Translations under genes and position numbers: made by a program
In this document: positions 1,317 through 39,223 of the stretch, in pieces
Position numbering within the stretch: position 1 is the first letter of the stretch
How the letters are laid out: every line of letters begins with the position of its first letter
IMG/VR virus record: IMGVR_UViG_3300025156_000428
Direction: 5' to 3' (one strand)
Origin: a virus
DNA: 39,641 bases
The notes under the pieces: generated by a model
The model's input: only the letters and a program-made list of their open reading frames with translations
Told to the model about the DNA's origin: nothing
The model's database searches: none

Positions 1317-1580
1317 TCACAAACTCTCAACTGCCTCAATCATATCAATCAATGCGAGTGCCTCTCCTGCTTTGTTGAGAAATAGCTCATTGAAGAATGG
1401 AATTGCTCTCTTTTCATCAGAGAGCCTTTTGAGAATGGAGGCAGTAATGCGCAAACGATGATGCAGAATTTTCAGTGCTGTTTTCTTTCCTTCATATCGC
1501 AGAATATGACGGATGTATGGATGCAGTTCTGTGACTGTGGTGAGATAACCACTCAAGATGAAAACAATTTCATTTTCCAT
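1317..1580 (-). CDS. Hypothetical protein, 87 aa
   Basis: ORF track; plausible amphipathic helical composition; on the genome's coding strand. Confidence 0.55.
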   Translation of the reverse strand: MENEIVFILSGYLTTVTELHPYIRHILRYEGKKTALKILHHRLRITASILKRLSDEKRAIPFFNELFLNKAGEALALIDMIEAVESL

Positions 1581-1607: not shown

Positions 1608-1644
1608 AACAAAGAAATAGGAAAAAATAAAAGGGAAGAGGAAA
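1608..1644 (-). terminator. T-rich archaeal-type terminator after the basic-protein operon
   Basis: Minus strand reads TTTCCTCTTCCCTTTATTTTTTCCTATTTCTTTGTTT directly after the stop at 1645. Confidence 0.5.
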
Positions 1645-2031
1645 TTAGGCAACATTCATTGCTGTTGGCTCAACATCTGTCGTTCTGACAAATATCTTCA
1701 CTCTCCGAGCATCTCGTGGCAGCTCAACAATTTTTGTGTTTGTCACAGTTGCTCTTGACACTCTATATCGTGTTCTGCCTCTCCTTGCGGTGAATGCTCT
1801 GCGTGGATTTTCGTATGTGATTTTCAATCCATACACTCTTCTCCCAAATCGGTTTGTGAATCTTCCTCTCTCAATTTTTGTCACTGTCCCTGAAACATAC
1901 ACTCTCTTGACATGAGGTTTCCATCTCACCTTTCCTCCTCTTACTCTGTCTCTGCTTTCATAATAGACAAAAAGAGCTCTTGTTTTGCCTCTGTATTTTG
2001 CTGTTGTTGGTCTATATTTCATTTCATACAC
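1645..2031 (-). CDS. Very basic Arg-rich beta-strand protein, putative nucleic-acid binding, 128 aa
   Basis: GGAGGTG RBS; overlaps the upstream stop; R/K-rich (KRVYVSG...RFTNRFGRRVYG...TARRGRTRYRVSRA). Confidence 0.75.
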   Translation of the reverse strand: MYEMKYRPTTAKYRGKTRALFVYYESRDRVRGGKVRWKPHVKRVYVSGTVTKIERGRFTNRFGRRVYGLKITYENPRRAFTARRGRTRYRVSRATVTNTKIVELPRDARRVKIFVRTTDVEPTAMNVA

Positions 2032-2428
2032 CTCCCTTCAGATCACTTCTGTTCTGACGATATTCATAATACACCTTTCCACTTCTGCTGCTTCTTTTGC
2101 CAGGTGACAGTGCTTTTAGTTTCTTGTCTCGTGCAAGGTTTTTGCTTTTTCCTGTCTGGCGCTGAGCTGGTTTGATTGTTTTTCCAGTCTTTTTTCCTTT
2201 CTTTCTTTTGCTTCTTTTAACTGTTTTTCTGACATTTCTTTTATTTGTTTCTCTCAGAAAATCTTTGATGACTTTGATTTTTGTTCTTTCATATATGTTT
2301 AGAGGTGCTCTTTTTGCAATTCTTTCTAACTCTGCTCTTGTTAATCGTTTGATGAGCTGCTTTCCATGAAATTCACCAAGCTTCTCTGGAGGAATTTTCA
2401 TCAGTTCTTTTGTTGTTGTCATTTTCAC
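2024..2428 (-). CDS. Very basic Lys-rich protein, putative DNA-condensing, 134 aa
   Basis: KRSKRKKGKKTGK tract and C-terminal RDKKLKALSPGKRSSRSGKVYYEYRQNRSD; coupled to its neighbours. Confidence 0.75.
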   Translation of the reverse strand: MKMTTTKELMKIPPEKLGEFHGKQLIKRLTRAELERIAKRAPLNIYERTKIKVIKDFLRETNKRNVRKTVKRSKRKKGKKTGKTIKPAQRQTGKSKNLARDKKLKALSPGKRSSRSGKVYYEYRQNRSDLKGGV

Positions 2429-2748
2429 CCAATTCTCTCATCATACTTCTTTCCACTGATGCCCAATTTCTCCAATTGTCTGTTGGCTACTCTCGCTGTC
2501 TTTGCATATTCTCTCTTTGCAGCACTTCTCATCTTTGTCAGCTTTCCTCTGAATGCATTTCTCCATGCAGGAGAGAAGGTGAGAGTGTAGAGGTATAGGG
2601 AGCGGCGGACAAGCTCAGTGATTCTGGCTCTGGTCTTTGCTCTCTTGATTTGCTCTCTGATATGACAGTTGATTGCTCTGATGTCTTTGATAGATTCAAC
2701 TGTACCATAGATGTGGTGTTTACTCCTTTTCAAGACAGGACACTTCAT
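2425..2748 (-). CDS. Basic alpha-helical protein, putative DNA-binding, ~107 aa
   Basis: GGAGGTGA RBS upstream of ATG 2748; R/K-rich helices. Confidence 0.75.
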   Translation of the reverse strand: MKCPVLKRSKHHIYGTVESIKDIRAINCHIREQIKRAKTRARITELVRRSLYLYTLTFSPAWRNAFRGKLTKMRSAAKREYAKTARVANRQLEKLGISGKKYDERIG

Positions 2749-2753
2749 AAGAA

Positions 2754-2831
2754 TCACCTCCTTCTTCTTACTCTTCTTGTTCTCTTCTTCCTACCACCCC
2801 TCCTTCTTCTTGTTCTTTTTCTTCTTGCCAT
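2754..2831 (-). CDS. Protamine-like 25-aa peptide MARRKRTRRRRGGRKKRTRRVRRRR (absent from ORF track)
   Basis: Hand-translated ATG(2831) to TGA(2754); preceded by GGAGGTGAGAAA; its last codons and stop form the RBS of the next gene; 18 of 25 residues are R/K. Confidence 0.8.
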   Translation of the reverse strand: MARRKRTRRRRGGRKKRTRRVRRRR

Positions 2832-2835
2832 TTTC

Positions 2836-2967
2836 TCACCTCCTTTTTCTCTTTGATTTTGGTGAGATGAGGTAGCGTTTACATACAGGGCATTCCTTTG
2901 GCTTCTCCACTCTTGGCATCCATTCATACCCGCAGTGCGGGCATCTCACGCGCCTCATTTTCATCAT
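2836..2967 (-). CDS. Small C4 zinc-finger protein, 43 aa (absent from ORF track)
   Basis: Hand translation MMKMRRVRCPHCGYEWMPRVEKPKECPVCKRYLISPKSKRKRR; CxxC-x13-CxxC pattern typical of small archaeal virus zinc fingers. Confidence 0.8.
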   Translation of the reverse strand: MMKMRRVRCPHCGYEWMPRVEKPKECPVCKRYLISPKSKRKRR

Positions 2968-2980
2968 CCTCCATTTGTCA

Positions 2981-3010
2981 TTATTATATTAATAATATTA
3001 TATAATTATC
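2981..3010 (-). promoter_or_regulatory. AT-only promoter/operator region for the basic-protein operon
   Basis: Minus strand GATAATTATATAATATTATTAATATAATAA with a TATA-like TTATATA about 35 nt upstream of the first ATG. Confidence 0.55.
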
Positions 3011-3119: not shown

Positions 3120-3320
3120 TTAGTCAATTGGGATGCCCACTTTCTGTTCTATGACTTCAATGGTCTTTCTCACACCTTGCACGAGATTGCCTCTGCCTCG
3201 TCGCCAGCGGAAGATCACCTTTCCTGTTTCCTCGTCTCGGATGACAACCTCAATTGAGTATGGCACATTTGCCTTTTCCAACACTTCTTCAATTTCCTCT
3301 CTTCTCATTTTCATTTCCAT
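3120..3320 (-). CDS. Hypothetical protein, 66 aa
   Basis: ORF track; GAGGTGA RBS; charged composition. Confidence 0.65.
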   Translation of the reverse strand: MEMKMRREEIEEVLEKANVPYSIEVVIRDEETGKVIFRWRRGRGNLVQGVRKTIEVIEQKVGIPID

Positions 3321-3327
3321 TTTCTCA

Positions 3328-3531
3328 TCACCTCAGAAGTGAGACAATACCAACTATCACCATCACAAAGAACAGTAATACAGCAACATAAGGCAGCACT
3401 GTTGTGAGAGCAGGAATTGTCGCAGAAACATTTGTTGTGGTTGTTGGTATCTCTTCCCATCCTGCTGAAAGGAAGAAGACTGCCATTGCTGCTATTATTA
3501 CCAATATTAGTGCACTAATCATGTTCATCAC
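3328..3531 (-). CDS. Small two-TM protein, capsid-like hairpin (putative minor virion protein)
   Basis: Two hydrophobic helices separated by a Thr-rich loop PTTTTNVS that contains an N-glycosylation sequon. Confidence 0.7.
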   Translation of the reverse strand: MMNMISALILVIIAAMAVFFLSAGWEEIPTTTTNVSATIPALTTVLPYVAVLLFFVMVIVGIVSLLR

Positions 3532-10309: not shown

Positions 10310-12414
10310 TTTCTCCTCCCAAAGGTTTTGATGAGTTGAGTAGGAGTTGAGATTGGTGTGACACGCAGGAATTTGTCTGCTTCTTCCATTGCACTTGTTT
10401 TTCTGAAAGCAAACTCCTTTCTCTTTCTCCTTCTTTTCTGTGTTTGTATTGTCTCTGATGGAAGAAGGAAGAATGTTGGACTTATGCTTTTTCCAGTGAC
10501 TCCTCCTATTTTGGCAACAGCTCCTGAAGGTGTCACCATACCTCTTGGCATTTGTGGAAGAATTGATGATGGTGATGTAGATGGTGTAAAGACATGAGTT
10601 GGGAATGATGGAGCTGACTTCCCTGTGGTTGCAGAGGGAGAGGTTGGAGCTATGGAAGCTGTGGCTCTTACAACACTTTTACTTATTCCTTTGCTTACAC
10701 TTTTACTCATTAGTCCTGAGCTTTTCACACCAACTGAAAAGGAGGTGAGAGGGCTTTTTATTGATGATGACACTGTGTATAGAGAGGGTGATTTCAACAA
10801 AGACAGAGATGGTGATATTGCAACTGATCTTCCTGCAACACCAAAGGAGGATTTCATTAATTTACTCACATTTACACCTTCAAATGCTCCAAGTTCAATT
10901 TTCACTCCTTTCTGTCTTTGTGCCTGTCTCCACATTCTTCTTGCTTCTTTTGCAATATCTCCTCCCCAACTCTCAATCCATCTCTCCAGTCTGAATTCCA
11001 ACTCTCTCGCTCTTCCATATTTGCCAAGCATTCTCAACCTCTCTACTGTTGCCTTTCCTGCAAAGAAATAATCATAGATGTCCTTCACTCTTCCTGCATG
11101 TGCTGGTGCTATGAATCCCTTTACCTCCTTAAATTCAACGGGTTTTGCTCTCAACTCCACTGCTCCACTGAGCTTCCTCAGTGCTTGCTCAGAAAGTGTT
11201 GTTGTTCTGATACCTTCTTTTGTTTTGATGAGTTTGCCTGTTTTGAATCCATATGCCAAGAAGCCTCCTTCTCGCGGTAAGATTCCTCCTTTTACTGAGG
11301 TTTCGCCAAAACCAATTGGATGGATGTCAAACAGTTTTTCACCTGTTCTTCTCACAATGATGCTCTCTCCTTCCATTGTTACCACTTGTCTGCCTGCTCT
11401 TTTATTTATTGCCTCAACCATTTTTCTTGCAAATTTAGCAGGATTTCTCACTTGCACATCTATGTCACGAGGTGTGCGTGGGAGTGCTTTCACACCAATC
11501 TCTCTCCCTGCAGCTTCCTGCATCACACTGCCATACAATCTTGCTTTTGCTCTCTTCAGTTCTTTGATCACAACCTCACTAGTGCCTCTGGGAAGTTCGT
11601 GCCCCTTTTCTACAACACCTCTGATCACAGTCCCAAGCTCACGAGGTTTCACCTTTACGCCTTTAATGATTTGTTGTGAGCTGATTCCCCATTCCATCTT
11701 TCCCATTTCTGTTGGTGCTTTTCTCTGCATGTATTCAAGAGCGATTGATCGCTCAAAAGGTGTCTGTGGCACATATGCCTCTTCACTCAAAATCTCGGCT
11801 CTAATCTTTGGTTTGCCGAGTGAAATTGGTTTGGTTATGCTTGGTTTGCCAGCACTCACGAGAGGTTTGAATGTTGCCTCACCATGCAATCTCTTTATCT
11901 CAATCCCAAGTGCTCCAACCCTTCCCTTCGGAAATTCTGCTGTTGTAATTTTTGGTCTGACAGGTAACTTGCCATAGGCATAAGGAACAAGAAGTGATGT
12001 TGCAGTCTCAGCAGCAAATTCATATGGACGTCTTCTCACATACTGTGATATCTCACCAATTTCTCTTTTCAGTCCTGAAGGCGAGGCAACTCCCTTAAAT
12101 CCCATTCTCAGCATTGGTATGCCTGTTAATGCCAATGGAGTTCTTACAACACCACTTATAACTCCTCTCTTCACTTGTTCTGTTGGAGCCAAAGAAGTTG
12201 AAGGAGCAACTGTTCTAATTATTGGTCTTGCTATTGCAGTTTCATATCCTCTTTCAAGTCTTTCACTGAGTTTCCATGCAAATCCTGAGATGTATTGTAA
12301 TGATTTGAAAATCCTCTCTGGTGTTGGCACCTGAATTCTTCCTGTGAAATGCCAGACAGGCACACCTTCTCTTCTCAGCTCCCTCCTGATGTCTTCAATC
12401 ATCATACTCACCAA
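10306..12414 (-). CDS. Large basic protein with central AbiEii/MenT-like nucleotidyltransferase signature, 702 aa
   Basis: LYGS(295-296)-x20-DID(317-319), later LSEQALRKLSGA and RVKDIYD(443-448); Ser/Pro-rich C-terminal third. The ORF is solid; the function is an inference. Confidence 0.55.
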   Translation of the reverse strand: MVSMMIEDIRRELRREGVPVWHFTGRIQVPTPERIFKSLQYISGFAWKLSERLERGYETAIARPIIRTVAPSTSLAPTEQVKRGVISGVVRTPLALTGIPMLRMGFKGVASPSGLKREIGEISQYVRRRPYEFAAETATSLLVPYAYGKLPVRPKITTAEFPKGRVGALGIEIKRLHGEATFKPLVSAGKPSITKPISLGKPKIRAEILSEEAYVPQTPFERSIALEYMQRKAPTEMGKMEWGISSQQIIKGVKVKPRELGTVIRGVVEKGHELPRGTSEVVIKELKRAKARLYGSVMQEAAGREIGVKALPRTPRDIDVQVRNPAKFARKMVEAINKRAGRQVVTMEGESIIVRRTGEKLFDIHPIGFGETSVKGGILPREGGFLAYGFKTGKLIKTKEGIRTTTLSEQALRKLSGAVELRAKPVEFKEVKGFIAPAHAGRVKDIYDYFFAGKATVERLRMLGKYGRARELEFRLERWIESWGGDIAKEARRMWRQAQRQKGVKIELGAFEGVNVSKLMKSSFGVAGRSVAISPSLSLLKSPSLYTVSSSIKSPLTSFSVGVKSSGLMSKSVSKGISKSVVRATASIAPTSPSATTGKSAPSFPTHVFTPSTSPSSILPQMPRGMVTPSGAVAKIGGVTGKSISPTFFLLPSETIQTQKRRRKRKEFAFRKTSAMEEADKFLRVTPISTPTQLIKTFGRRK

Positions 12415-12437
12415 TTATAATATTATTATCTCACCGT

Positions 12438-19943: not shown

Positions 19944-21731
19944 CTATATCACCTCTCCAACTCCAAATTTCCTTCTCCTTTTCCACTCCTCCTTTTTTCC
20001 TCTATTCCATGCATGAACAGGCGAGTAATACCCAACAACTCTGGAAAACACTTCACATTCAGCTCCACAGCTTTCACACTTCAATAGTTCTCCATGATAT
20101 CGTCTTGAACAAACACGGCAGACTGAATAGGTTGGTGTCAATGTATAGTATGGTAGTGTGAATTTCTCACAGAGCCATCTGATGAGGTTTGGCACAATTT
20201 CTATGCATTGATCCTCAGGAATGCCCTCTCCCAAATATACATGAAACACGGTGCCACCTGTGTATAATACCTGAAGCTCCTGTTGATGCAGAAGCATCTC
20301 AATCAAATCAAGATCACAATCTACTGGCAATTGTGTTGAGTTTGTGTAGAATGGTGTTTTTCCTCCTCCTGATACAAATATCTTCTTCCCAAATCTTTTT
20401 CTGTCAATCTTTGCCAGACGATAGGAGCAACCCTCTGCTGGCGTTGCTTCAAGATTGTAGAGGTGGCCTGTCTCCTCTTGAAATTCCCTCACTCTCATCT
20501 GAATATGCTTCAGCACTCTCACTGCAAACTCTTTTCCATCATTATCTGCAATTGAGCATCCAAGAAAGTTCTGACACATCTCCTCTCCTGCGACAACTCC
20601 GATTGTTGAGAAGTGATTGTTGAGTGTCTGAAGGTATTGCGCTGTGTATGGGAAGAGGCCTTGCTTGAAATTCTCTTCCACAACTCTCCTTTTGAGCTCC
20701 AGTGCCTCTTTTGCAATCTCCAATCTCTCATCCAAGAGCTCAAAGAAATCACTCTCATCATTTGTGAGAAATCCAATCTGAGATAGATTTATCGTGACAA
20801 CTCCAATTGAGCCTGTGCTGTCATTGTAGCCAAACAACCCTCCTGTCTTTTTTCTCAATTCTCTGAGATCCAAATTCAACCGACAACACATTGAGCGGAC
20901 ATCCTCAGGATTTATTCCTCCACTGATGCAGTTTTGGAAATAGGGGACGCCAAACATTCCTGTTGCCTTTGCAAGCACCTCTGCAAATCCATTGACCCAG
21001 TCAAAATCTCTTGTGATATTGTATGTTGGAATTGGAAATCTGAAAATTGCTCCATCAGCATCTCCTTCCACCAGCACTTCCAGAAATGCCTTGTTTATCA
21101 TCTCTCTTTCCTCTGTGAATTCATCGTAAGTCCTGTCTTGTGCCTCTCCACCAACTATCGCTGCCACGCTCTTTAGGTCAGTTGGGATGGTGATATCAAA
21201 TGTGATATTTGTGAATGGTGTTTCGTGCCCAAACCTCAGAGCTACATTCAGTCCAAACACAAACTCCTGAATTGCTTGCTTTACCTGTCTATATGAGAGT
21301 TTGTCGTAATGAATGAATGGTGCAAGGAGTGTGTCAAAGGAGTTTACTGCCTGCGCACCTGCCCACTCCTGACTGATAACACCTATGAAATTCAATAGCT
21401 GACCCAAAGCAGATGTGAGGTGCTTTGGAGGTTTTGATTTCAGTGTTCCTTTTCCACCATAAAATCCCTCTGTGAGCAGCTGCAAGAGATTCCAACCACT
21501 GCAATATCCTCCTATTCCATGCCCCAAATCATGGATGTGAATTGCTCCATCCAAATGTGCTTCTCTCACTCGCTCTGGATAAATGGAAAGAGTGTGCTTT
21601 GCAATTGCCTTCTCTGCTATGTATGTCTTCAGTCCTCCAATTGATGGAATCCTGTTTGCGTTCTCATTTATCCTCCATGTCTTCTTGCTGACATATTCAT
21701 CTACAACCTTCATTCTTTCCACCTCCAACAT
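19944..21731 (-). CDS. nrdD: Anaerobic (class III) ribonucleoside-triphosphate reductase, no ATP cone
   Basis: HIHDL..GYC, SMCCRL, NLEATPAEG, C-terminal CxxC-x9-CxxC zinc site and glycyl-radical loop SRVVGY; likely start ATG at 21713. Confidence 0.95.
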   Translation of the reverse strand: MLEVERMKVVDEYVSKKTWRINENANRIPSIGGLKTYIAEKAIAKHTLSIYPERVREAHLDGAIHIHDLGHGIGGYCSGWNLLQLLTEGFYGGKGTLKSKPPKHLTSALGQLLNFIGVISQEWAGAQAVNSFDTLLAPFIHYDKLSYRQVKQAIQEFVFGLNVALRFGHETPFTNITFDITIPTDLKSVAAIVGGEAQDRTYDEFTEEREMINKAFLEVLVEGDADGAIFRFPIPTYNITRDFDWVNGFAEVLAKATGMFGVPYFQNCISGGINPEDVRSMCCRLNLDLRELRKKTGGLFGYNDSTGSIGVVTINLSQIGFLTNDESDFFELLDERLEIAKEALELKRRVVEENFKQGLFPYTAQYLQTLNNHFSTIGVVAGEEMCQNFLGCSIADNDGKEFAVRVLKHIQMRVREFQEETGHLYNLEATPAEGCSYRLAKIDRKRFGKKIFVSGGGKTPFYTNSTQLPVDCDLDLIEMLLHQQELQVLYTGGTVFHVYLGEGIPEDQCIEIVPNLIRWLCEKFTLPYYTLTPTYSVCRVCSRRYHGELLKCESCGAECEVFSRVVGYYSPVHAWNRGKKEEWKRRRKFGVGEVI

Positions 21732-22078
21732 TCGTCACATACATCCCCTTCAACAAGCTCCCTTCCAATATCTATGAGAGAATGAGCAGGAAATTTTGAT
21801 GCATATTCCTTTCCACACCTGTTGCATTTTCTGATGAGATAGAAGGTGATATCAGAGAAGAAAGGACATTTGCTTTCTCTTGCCTTGAATTTCAAATCAT
21901 CACAAACAATTATCACATCAGAATCAGAAACAACAACCCTTTCAGGCACAGCACTGAATTTCTTGAAGAATTCAATTCTTGCTCTCTCAATAAATTCTTC
22001 TCTCTTCTTTTTCTCAAATGCTTCCTCCTTATCCTTATATTCCAAATATGCACTCTTTGCCCTTTCATACAAACTCAT
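21710..22078 (-). CDS. Zinc-binding hypothetical protein, ~122 aa
   Basis: ATG 22078 after GGAGGTGA; CNRC...CDEC. Confidence 0.7.
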   Translation of the reverse strand: MSLYERAKSAYLEYKDKEEAFEKKKREEFIERARIEFFKKFSAVPERVVVSDSDVIIVCDDLKFKARESKCPFFSDITFYLIRKCNRCGKEYASKFPAHSLIDIGRELVEGDVCDECWRWKE

Positions 22079-22127
22079 CCATATCACCTCCTTCAAAAAT
22101 GGGAAAAATAAAAGGAAAGGAGGGAAA

Positions 22128-23174
22128 TCAACAAATATGCACTCTGCCCTTCGCAGGTGGTGTGTAGTGTGGATATGAGAAGAAATAGTCAAGCATATCG
22201 TTGGGATACTCACCAGGCTTCCTGCCATAATCATTGTCATTGGTTGGTGGACTTATATGCCAGGGGATATCATCTTTGTAGTGGTCATAACTGAACATGA
22301 TTGTCACGGGACTCTCACGCACATCATAAACTGAGAGCAGGTCTTTGTAGTAAACCCATCCTTCCAGCCTGAATCCTCTGAGTGCCTCCTTAAGCACAAA
22401 TCCATATGTCTCATTGTCAATCTCCCTTACCACATAGCCTTTACCCTCATAGGGATCGTAACTGTATCTGCCAAGCAGAGGGAGACCTTCCCACGAATTA
22501 TTGAATGGAATTTGCTCATAATTGTGATAGACTGTCTCTATATTCTCCTCGTGAAGCTCCAAATCCTCTTTATCGCATGCTATGACTATCGCCTGCATAT
22601 GATAGCGATTCTCGCAATACACGAGTGTGAGTGGAATGTTGAATCTGCCTTGCCACTTCATGTTGTATGTCTCTGGCAATCCAGCAAGACAGTCACAATA
22701 TCTTCCGTCATAGGCAATTCTGAGTTGATTTGCGTAGTTACCACAGGCTCCTCGTTTGGGAAATGAGGCATGCCTGCGCTCAATTTTGTAAATCCAATCC
22801 ATTCGCTCTGAGACATTGCACCTATCCCAGTGCGCAGGAAGATGATCTATTCGCCCAATGAAATACCAAACCAACTGTTTCACATCTTGCAGTGTTACCA
22901 CTCCATCACCATCCACATCACATGCATCTACTGTTGCATTTGGATCTTCTGTGAAATAGTATGCTGTTTTGTTGTTCGGAGATTTTGCAATCTTTCGGCA
23001 AATGTCAATGTCTATTTGATTCACTACTCCATCATTATTTGCATCTCCACTCCCATAATACCGTGAATGTGAGAAATTGGAATATGTAAATGTCTCTGTT
23101 GGATCAAATGCACTTACTGTTGAGACTAACAAAAAGAAAAATATAGATACAGCAAAACAAATATGCCACCTCAT
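22128..23174 (-). CDS. Secreted dockerin-domain protein with putative transglutaminase-like Cys domain, 348 aa
   Basis: Signal peptide; duplicated Ca-binding loops GDANNDGVVNQID and DVDGDGVVTLQD; GACGNYA and a downstream His (YHMQAIV). Confidence 0.7.
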   Translation of the reverse strand: MRWHICFAVSIFFFLLVSTVSAFDPTETFTYSNFSHSRYYGSGDANNDGVVNQIDIDICRKIAKSPNNKTAYYFTEDPNATVDACDVDGDGVVTLQDVKQLVWYFIGRIDHLPAHWDRCNVSERMDWIYKIERRHASFPKRGACGNYANQLRIAYDGRYCDCLAGLPETYNMKWQGRFNIPLTLVYCENRYHMQAIVIACDKEDLELHEENIETVYHNYEQIPFNNSWEGLPLLGRYSYDPYEGKGYVVREIDNETYGFVLKEALRGFRLEGWVYYKDLLSVYDVRESPVTIMFSYDHYKDDIPWHISPPTNDNDYGRKPGEYPNDMLDYFFSYPHYTPPAKGRVHIC

Positions 23175-38533: not shown

Positions 38534-39223
38534 TTATATCAATGGCTCATCATCAATCTCTTCCTTTTCTGATTTCTTCCTTTCTCTCTTTTTCTCATAC
38601 AATCCCTGCTTTATCAGATACTCCCTTAGTGAAAAATAATTCACTTGAAGAATTTTTGAAATTGCAGAAAGACTTAGTCCAAGCTGCAAATATTTTTTCA
38701 CATCTCTTATCTGTTTCTGCGTGAGAGAAAATGGTGGACGACCAATCAGCTTTCCTTCAGCTCTTGCCCTTCTCATCCCTTCATATACTCTCTGCCTTAT
38801 CAGCTCTCTCTCCCTCTCTGCTACCCATGCAAAAATCGTGAGAATCAGATTTCTCACACTCTCATCTTGTGCATTCAAAAATTGCTCTTTCTCACTGACA
38901 CTGAAAACTCTCACACCAAGCTCTTTCTCAAACTTTCTGATCATCGTCACTGTATCAAACATATCTCTGCCAATCCGTGAGATCTCATACACATACAGAT
39001 TGATTTGTTCATCATTGTTCTGCTGCCTGATCCCATGAATGAATGCCAACATTTCGTTGAATCCTTTCCTCTTCTTTGCTGGAATTGCCCCACTCACTCC
39101 GACATCCATGAAAAATTTGATTTCCTTGTCTTCTCCAAGAAATCGCCTGATTGCCAGCACCTGATTCTCAGGTCTCTCCTCAACTCTTGATACTCTCACA
39201 TAACCAATGTGCACCACCATCAC
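38534..39223 (-). CDS. Small serine recombinase (resolvase/invertase family) with C-terminal HTH, 229 aa
   Basis: GYVRVS catalytic motif, D.GVSG, R.GFNEML, ISRIGRD, ERELIRQRVYEG...AEG..IGRP, terminal HTH. Confidence 0.92.
   Translation of the reverse strand: MMVVHIGYVRVSRVEERPENQVLAIRRFLGEDKEIKFFMDVGVSGAIPAKKRKGFNEMLAFIHGIRQQNNDEQINLYVYEISRIGRDMFDTVTMIRKFEKELGVRVFSVSEKEQFLNAQDESVRNLILTIFAWVAERERELIRQRVYEGMRRARAEGKLIGRPPFSLTQKQIRDVKKYLQLGLSLSAISKILQVNYFSLREYLIKQGLYEKKRERKKSEKEEIDDEPLI

Follow-up and report, generated by a model that had tools for sequence, protein, structure and literature searches.

A minus-strand operon of basic proteins

The 39,641-nt sequence of virus record IMGVR_UViG_3300025156_000428, which was analysed as a whole and is referred to below as the window, belongs to an uncultured Itzamnaviridae-like spindle virus of methane-oxidising ANME-1 archaea, with nearly all long open reading frames (ORFs) on the minus strand. 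At positions 1645-2967 it carries an operon of five ORFs on that strand, all coding for highly basic proteins. Two of these, h107 and r125, form a conserved core. The features of the locus are as follows.

2836-2967, minus strand: Zn-ribbon protein; 43 aa, or more probably 40 aa with the ATG at 2958 as start
2754-2831, minus strand: Arg-rich microprotein, 25 aa, with 15 Arg and 3 Lys (72% Lys plus Arg)
2425-2748, minus strand: h107, core gene 1, basic helical bundle, net charge +20
2024-2428, minus strand: k132, Lys-rich; 2024-2422 from the likely ATG at 2422 (132 aa)
1645-2031, minus strand: r125, core gene 2, Arg-rich all-beta protein, net charge about +26; 1645-2022 from the likely ATG at 2022
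2980-3009, minus strand: A/T-only run of 30 nt, located in the gap (152 nt) upstream of the gene for the Zn-ribbon; candidate TATA element or operator of archaeal type
1622-1632, minus strand: TTTTATTTTTT tract, 13 nt past the r125 stop, candidate archaeal oligo-T terminator

The start of r125 was placed at the ATG at 2022 (125 aa) because its homologues begin there. An earlier reading of the DNA from the sequence alone (the sequence-only reading) had taken the five ORFs for a transcription unit of very basic proteins, and both points hold. The genes are co-oriented and separated by spacers of only 1-5 nt, and 5-8-nt matches to the Shine-Dalgarno (SD) sequence GGAGGTGA are found at four of the five starts. 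The codons AGG AGG TGA end both the Zn-ribbon gene and the gene of the 25-aa peptide and at the same time form the GGAGGTGA SD of the gene that follows. The terminal Arg-Arg-stop (AGGAGGTGA) thus doubles as the ribosome-binding site of the next gene at two junctions here, and it does likewise in the distant relative L018. The end of the 25-aa gene supplies a perfect SD for h107 at a spacing of 4. Strong SD sites are common genome-wide in the window, and SD strength was for this reason rejected as a proxy for protein abundance.

The net charge per residue is 0.18-0.35 in the five ORFs compared to at most 0.12 in nearly all other ORFs of the window, and the five proteins are the most cationic that the window encodes (isoelectric point [pI] 10.5-12). 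We estimate the chance that the most basic ORFs adjoin each other to be of the order of 1e-5. Such extreme charge would be expected of proteins that bind nucleic acids. Comparable basicity is seen in only one other ORF, of 51 aa (21913-22068, minus strand), with a pI of 11.9 and a net charge of 0.22 per residue; it overlaps the stretch of a 176-aa ORF (21710-22240) and may be no gene.

In length, the A/T-only run at 2980-3009 far exceeds all others of the window. It carries the palindrome ATAATATTAT, preceded by GAGATAAT, and in a scan of the window this combination with the exact palindrome recurred only at 12413-12429, upstream of the gene for a 702-aa structural protein. These are the two longest A/T-only runs of the window, each directly upstream of a minus-strand gene block. 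Judged from the sequence, they may represent a late promoter or operator shared by the 702-aa structural gene and the basic operon; the common motif hints at co-regulation of the operon with structural genes but is not proof of it. The run is nearly identical in the related contigs L010 and L021, and a TATA-like TTTTTAA(A) is found at the same place in L006 and L001. The TTTTATTTTTT tract is kept in L010 and absent in L006, where the next gene follows 27 nt on. The A/T-only promoter and T-rich terminator of the sequence-only reading do exist as sequence elements, with putative functions. A scan for bacterial-type promoters and terminators is uninformative for an archaeal virus.

A conserved pair that is fused in bacteria

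In four virus lineages, the genes h107 and r125 lie next to each other, and their products are the best-conserved proteins of the region. In L018, identity is 52% for h107 and 47% for r125, compared to 28-39% for their neighbours. In the 47-kb contig L004, the adjacent pair comprises the sole genes that are common with the window in 12 kb.

Longer proteins that match the h107 profile carry an r125-like C-terminal domain. Such fusions consist either of two helical domains and one beta domain (h-h-r; 357-368 aa; P0078, P0087, P0107, P0164) or of one domain of each kind (h-r; 225-262 aa; P0104, P0142, P0156). In a third fusion type, an h107 paralogue is inserted in a k132-type protein (P0116, P0231-P0233). 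One cluster member of the h-h-r family is WP_166031134.1 from the cultured Thermosulfuriphilus ammonigenes, in which an h107-like domain (E about 1e-23) and an r125-like domain (E about 1e-20) are found in one chain. The independent gene fusions and the conserved adjacency strongly suggest that h107 and r125 act together; they are silent on what the two proteins do.

The core family is not virus-specific, as fused, near-neutral versions are found among bacterial housekeeping genes: P0087 and P0107 have sigma-70, MnmG, and RarA, or rpoB/rpoC, RecG, and FakA, in their surroundings. The bacterial fusions have an overall pI of about 6, with neutral helical domains and a basic beta domain (net +9 to +13). 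A strongly basic h-domain is thus confined to viruses, whereas the r-domain is basic also in near-neutral bacterial proteins. The bacterial fusion gave nothing above noise in Pfam, PHROGs, NCBIfam, or PADLOC; having no Pfam domain and no conserved neighbours, the bacterial h-h-r proteins represent an unnamed family. The chromosomal h-h-r genes of thermophilic bacteria at L012:9754-10848 and L015:10001-11077 code for 358-364 aa. The h-h-r gene of P0078 (L007:1380-2561) is convergent to a gene for the RNA ligase RtcB on a 3.2-kb contig that is too short to interpret. In the close relative L021, a second, truncated r125 paralogue (3120-3398; 92 aa) directly follows the full-length gene.

For h107, 42 close homologues were found, a protein of Methanophagales virus PBV082 among them, and its profile matched 189 clusters at E<1e-3 (106 at E<1e-10). 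Of the short members of the h107 family, 30 out of 173 have a pI below 8. For r125, there are 29 homologues in a set of 5.8 billion proteins and 260 matching metagenome stretches. Few Lys/Arg positions are invariant among the r125 homologues, yet the overall charge is kept, as expected of non-specific polyanion binding.

Structure prediction, which had been proposed as a check, resulted in confident models for both core proteins. The AF2 model of h107 (pLDDT 87, pTM 0.79) has four helices, and that of r125 (pLDDT 82.6, pTM 0.71) has eight strands, four of them of 10-13 residues. Fold comparison was less productive. The r125 model has no meaningful match in PDB (Foldseek E>=0.48; best VIA Z 3.7) or in BFVD, and h107 retrieved from PDB only generic helical bundles (best Z 9.1, to designed proteins), together with Foldseek rows to bS20 at noise level (TM 0.41-0.49, E>3). 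None of the chromatin families considered (histone fold, Alba, Cren7/Sul7d, MC1, HU/IHF) has a Pfam match to h107, k132, or r125. The comparison with chromatin folds gave VIA Z values of at most 3.7 for r125 and generic helical rows for h107, a missing fold match that is compatible with membership.

Sequence searches were similarly sparse. No family in Pfam, PHROGs, NCBIfam, or PADLOC matched r125 above noise or h107 at a meaningful score, the lone row for h107 being PADLOC PDC-M01B (E 0.046, 11 bits). Library scans found no helix-turn-helix (HTH), ribbon-helix-helix (RHH), or winged HTH (wHTH) signature in the operon proteins. PDB sequence searches with the module-protein profiles A1, A2, and A3 gave no match, ESM Atlas gave no usable lead for r125 or the bacterial fusion, and IMG/VR scans with r125, a 417-aa neighbour, and profiles A1 and A2 recovered no relatives. 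No match to h107 or r125 was obtained by tblastn against 50,697 phage and archaeal-virus records, and a scan of species genomes yielded a single contig of a metagenome-assembled genome.

Exchangeable genes around the core

The third of the larger proteins, k132, consists of a helical N-domain, a Lys-rich linker, and a conserved tail of about 55 aa which ends in ...GKVYYEYRQNRSDLKGGV. It has 16 homologues and no match in Pfam or PDB. Its tail is common to proteins with other N-domains or with an inserted h107 paralogue, and no mention of the tail motif was found in the literature. The position of k132 between h107 and r125 is a variable slot. In 51 related loci, which are otherwise 70-94% identical, the gap between the core genes varies from 210 to 1500 nt and codes for 47 different proteins, which fall into at least eight unrelated types. 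Besides the k130 type, to which the occupant in the window belongs, these include low-complexity, Lys-rich proteins with a KRRKRR end (86-122 aa), proteins whose N-terminus is poly-basic (101-105 aa), shorter ones with a KKRKRR end (63-70 aa), larger proteins that are alike only in a ...YYEYRQNRSD tail, and a neutral 56-aa protein. The slot proteins are mostly polycationic, and k132 is one interchangeable occupant. None matches a known defence or anti-defence family in the scans of family libraries.

The Zn-ribbon protein has two CxxC knuckles (CPHC at residues 9-12, CPVC at 26-29) and a C-terminal KSKRKRR tail. In short chains, two such knuckles spaced by about 12-20 residues are the generic hallmark of zinc ribbons; many zinc-ribbon families of Pfam and NCBIfam match below threshold and none above the cut-off. 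The protein is 74-97% identical in L010, L006, L011, and L001, all four Cys being kept in these contigs, and it is absent in L018 and L004.

The 25-aa peptide is protamine-like in composition (15 Arg, 3 Lys, no Asp or Glu), a likeness that does not imply descent. It is identical in L021. In L010, the gene has a GTG start and differs by three synonymous and five conservative changes without an indel; because of this pattern in the nearest relatives, we consider the ORF to be a real, translated gene. Only the window and its two closest relatives have the all-Arg form. Across 38 related loci, this position is mostly taken by a protein of 36-43 aa whose N-terminus reads MARRRR and which contains a conserved helix motif, ...SEIMSKVARGVRLTRKEREYLKRRR. 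On sequence grounds, the 25-aa "protamine" is a lineage-specific, derived or degenerate all-Arg form of this conserved microprotein. No Pfam family matched the peptide or its relatives of 36-78 aa at E values up to 10. Its identification as eL41 was considered and rejected, there being no Ribosomal_L41 match and the helix motif of the longer relatives being unlike eL41. Downstream of the module in L001 (6760-8184), proteins of 110 and 358 aa end in a common ...RYDVEGVDTP... motif. The 358-aa protein repeats the microprotein motif SEIM.KV..G..LT..EREYL, which is therefore a reusable module. The conserved parts of a viral operon can thus include microproteins of 25-43 aa that some gene calls overlook (L009/L010).

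Gene neighbourhood and virus affiliation

The operon genes are kept together in many related viral contigs. The order orf66, Zn-ribbon, microprotein, h107, variable gene(s), r125 is found in L001/L002, L006, L009/L010, L011, and L021. The distant L018-L020 have h107, an unrelated Arg/Gly-rich 36-aa peptide, a basic 83-aa protein, and r125, without a Zn-ribbon gene. A self-contained unit of five genes, as described in the sequence-only reading, exists only in the sub-lineage of the window; in relatives, the unit continues with additional genes, and another gene takes the place of the fourth. The survey of the slot and the comparison of lineages thus replace five fixed components with a two-gene core, h107/r125, and exchangeable accessories. 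The peptide, which had been counted as a component of its own, remains protamine-like in composition only, being derived from a longer conserved microprotein. The genes on either side of the operon are the following.

3120-3320, minus strand: orf66, upstream neighbour, neutral, 66 aa, with the motif ...VIFRWRRGRGNL
1317-1580, minus strand: orf87, downstream neighbour, not basic (pI 8.1), kept only in the closest relative L010/L022

While orf66 precedes the module in L010, L006, L011, and L001, and in a more distant form in L018, orf87 has no family match in Pfam or PHROGs.

The protein h107 shows 70% identity to EJNHJLOP_00010 from PBV082. This virus is the type pletoitzamnavirus, predicted to be spindle-shaped and to have ANME-1 archaea as hosts, with a structural arm and an enzymatic arm (PMC9894754). 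The window shares proteins with PBV082 and the split into two arms by which it can be assigned to the Itzamnaviridae (PMC9894754). One half encodes a family B DNA polymerase (PolB), a primase, RFC-like ATPases, an XPD-like helicase, and NrdD, and the other encodes large proteins bearing CarboxypepD_reg, tail-like proteins, and transmembrane proteins. In the window, the block of structural/adsorption genes ends with the module. Both in contigs of 22-26 kb and in those of 37-49 kb, the module always follows adsorption or tail-like genes, which fits the structural arm common to demi- and pletoitzamnaviruses (PMC9894754). A serine recombinase (resolvase; 38534-39223, minus strand) shares 73% identity with the protein encoded next after the basic module in L006. 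Because the recombinase matches the gene following the module in relatives, the window is considered to be circularly permuted and looks complete. On the circular map, a repeat-rich region (100-780) sits between the module and the recombinase.

Possible roles of the module

As the best single reading, though one that we hold tentatively, we propose that the module encodes a nucleic acid-binding complex of the structural arm which coats or compacts the viral DNA. It is preferred because charge is kept among homologues, the r-domain is basic throughout, the h-domain is strongly charged in viruses, the accessories are polycationic, and the module is linked to structural genes. The contiguity of the charge outliers, their tight coupling, the motif shared with the promoter region of the 702-aa structural gene, and the precedent of SSV1 VP2 also speak for it. 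In this view, an itzamnavirus-like spindle virus would have a late or structural-arm operon for a set of nucleic acid-binding proteins. The h107 helical bundle and the r125 beta-sheet protein most likely form one complex, as they are a single polypeptide in other organisms, and both viral partners are far more positive than their bacterial relatives. They would be accompanied by exchangeable polycations, namely the KRKRR-tailed Zn-ribbon, the Arg microprotein, and the slot for Lys/Arg-tailed proteins. At assembly or inside the virion, the set would coat the viral DNA and neutralise its charge. With about +109 per five-protein set, roughly 700 sets would neutralise the 79,282 phosphates of the genome, a figure that speaks to plausibility only. 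Nucleic acid binding, complex formation, timing, and virion location are inferences. Histone displacement and DNA condensation, as suggested in the sequence-only reading, are conjecture, as is a place in the virion, and we regard the term "viral chromatin", in the sense of that reading, as plausible but unproven.

A more specific version is doubtful. According to this, h107 and r125 might constitute a hitherto unrecognised two-part nucleic acid-binding fold, an alpha bundle on a beta sheet, which is fused in thermophilic bacteria and split in several archaeal-virus lineages, where it would serve as an itzamnavirus chromatin scaffold with the Lys/Arg-tailed cassette as an exchangeable "linker". 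If true, spindle-shaped virions would package their genome in a new way.

Several points weigh against a role in coating or compacting viral DNA. Packing in virions cannot be the ancestral role, as the bacterial homologues are single chromosomal genes in a housekeeping context with a pI of about 6. The neutral 56-aa protein fills the slot in many relatives. Neither predicted fold of the core pair has a recognisable relative that would link it to DNA. The terminal Arg residues are partly forced by the overlap of AGGAGGTGA with the next SD, and strong SD sites, being genome-wide, say nothing on abundance. With cellular homologues in bacteria and neutral variants in the slot, other explanations stay alive.

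One of these, which we consider unlikely but not negligible, is that the proteins are non-structural nucleic acid binders that act in the infected cell and are not packaged, either as regulators of transcription or replication or as remodellers of host chromatin or the nucleoid, expressed from their own promoter beside a resolvase and a repeat-rich putative origin. The operon does have an intergenic promoter-like element of its own, the circular map places it just upstream of the repeats and the recombinase, and one lineage of the bacterial, cellular homologues is encoded beside rpoB/rpoC. Zn-ribbons and small helical proteins are typical of viral regulators (PMC10541130). However, net charges between +20 and +33 for proteins of about 100-130 aa, as well as a peptide with 72% Lys plus Arg, far exceed what is usual in sequence-specific regulators, the library scans detected none of the DNA-binding signatures listed above, and wherever a lineage has structural genes, the module is linked to them.

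It is less probable still that the proteins are packaged and ejected like the internal proteins of phage T4, with h107/r125 as a DNA-associated scaffold and the slot coding for co-injected anti-defence cargo. Cargo that counters host defences would explain the rapid turnover of the slot, with its 47 proteins in otherwise highly similar loci, and most slot proteins have polybasic tails with which they could ride on DNA. Against this, neither a capsid-targeting signal nor a maturation protease was identified, the slot proteins lack matches to known defence or anti-defence families, and spindle viruses have no known mechanism for ejecting cargo with their DNA.

We attach little probability to RNA-binding or ribosome-associated proteins that mimic small ribosomal proteins and tune translation or protect viral RNA. 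Size and charge are ribosomal-like, the Zn-ribbon with its basic tail resembles eS27 or eL37, the h107 bundle (here taken as three helices) has the weak Foldseek rows to bS20, and bacterial homologues are encoded near rpoBC, RtcB, or MnmG in different lineages. A further likeness is that eL41 is a 25-aa Arg/Lys peptide. Yet no ribosomal family of Pfam or NCBIfam was matched (S27e only at E 0.064, the peptide none at E up to 10), the longer relatives of the microprotein are unlike eL41, the fold matches are at noise level, and a family common to bacteria and archaeal viruses is unlikely to target one ribosome type.

That the charge is incidental seems equally improbable to us. The proteins would then be assembly chaperones or scaffolds, or would bind to acidic surfaces of the capsid, the tail, or lipids, with thermophily and SD codon overlap favouring their basic tails. 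The Arg-Arg-stop junctions here and in L018, the acidic adsorption proteins nearby (pI 4.2-5.0), and the h107-family members with a pI below 8 fit this idea, but SD overlap accounts for just two residues per protein, and charge is spread over whole sequences and kept despite sequence change.

Comparison with known systems

The organisation of DNA (40-70 kb) in the flexible capsids of large spindle-shaped archaeal viruses is poorly understood. The module offers expressible candidates, a conserved, unannotated pair with confident but unmatched predicted folds. The natural fusion in a cultivable bacterium makes genetic study possible, and the hypervariable polycation slot may record charge tuning or an arms race.

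The adenovirus core proteins VII, V, and Mu are several polycations, including an Arg-rich peptide of about 19 aa, which condense about 36 kb of double-stranded DNA; they belong to a eukaryotic virus and are processed by a protease. The module resembles them in genome size and, given its putative role, in multi-component polycation logic. It differs in that no protease or processing site was seen in the module, and r125 retrieved nothing in the BFVD fold search.

The internal proteins IPI-III of phage T4 are small and basic, are encoded by a hyperplastic locus among conserved structural genes, have a cleaved capsid-targeting peptide, and are injected. The module shares with them a hypervariable basic-protein locus within structural genes (at least eight types in 51 loci). 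There is no sequence similarity to them according to PHROGs, and neither a protease gene nor a shared N-terminal signal was recognised.

The bacterial h-h-r proteins such as WP_166031134.1 are true homologues of h107 and r125. In contrast to the viral pair, they are single chains of about 360 aa (overall pI about 6) made up of two helical repeats and a beta domain, and they are encoded in a chromosomal housekeeping context.

Among spindle-shaped viruses, SSV1 has virions that contain the basic DNA-binding protein VP2 together with the host protein Sso7d; VP2 is patchy among relatives and is thought to organise the packaged genome (PMC9608457, PMC9351363). It is the only viral DNA-binding virion protein named in the literature that was consulted, and it is reported to be dispensable. 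Homology to VP2 was not detected, as the three larger proteins match no PHROGs family at E<=0.1 and the tblastn search with h107 and r125 described above was negative. Like the proteins of the module, VP2 is small, very basic, and encoded by a spindle-shaped archaeal virus. It is a single protein, whereas the module comprises several genes with a strongly conserved two-gene core. Virus-encoded basic core proteins are thus known, and here they are built from unannotated families.

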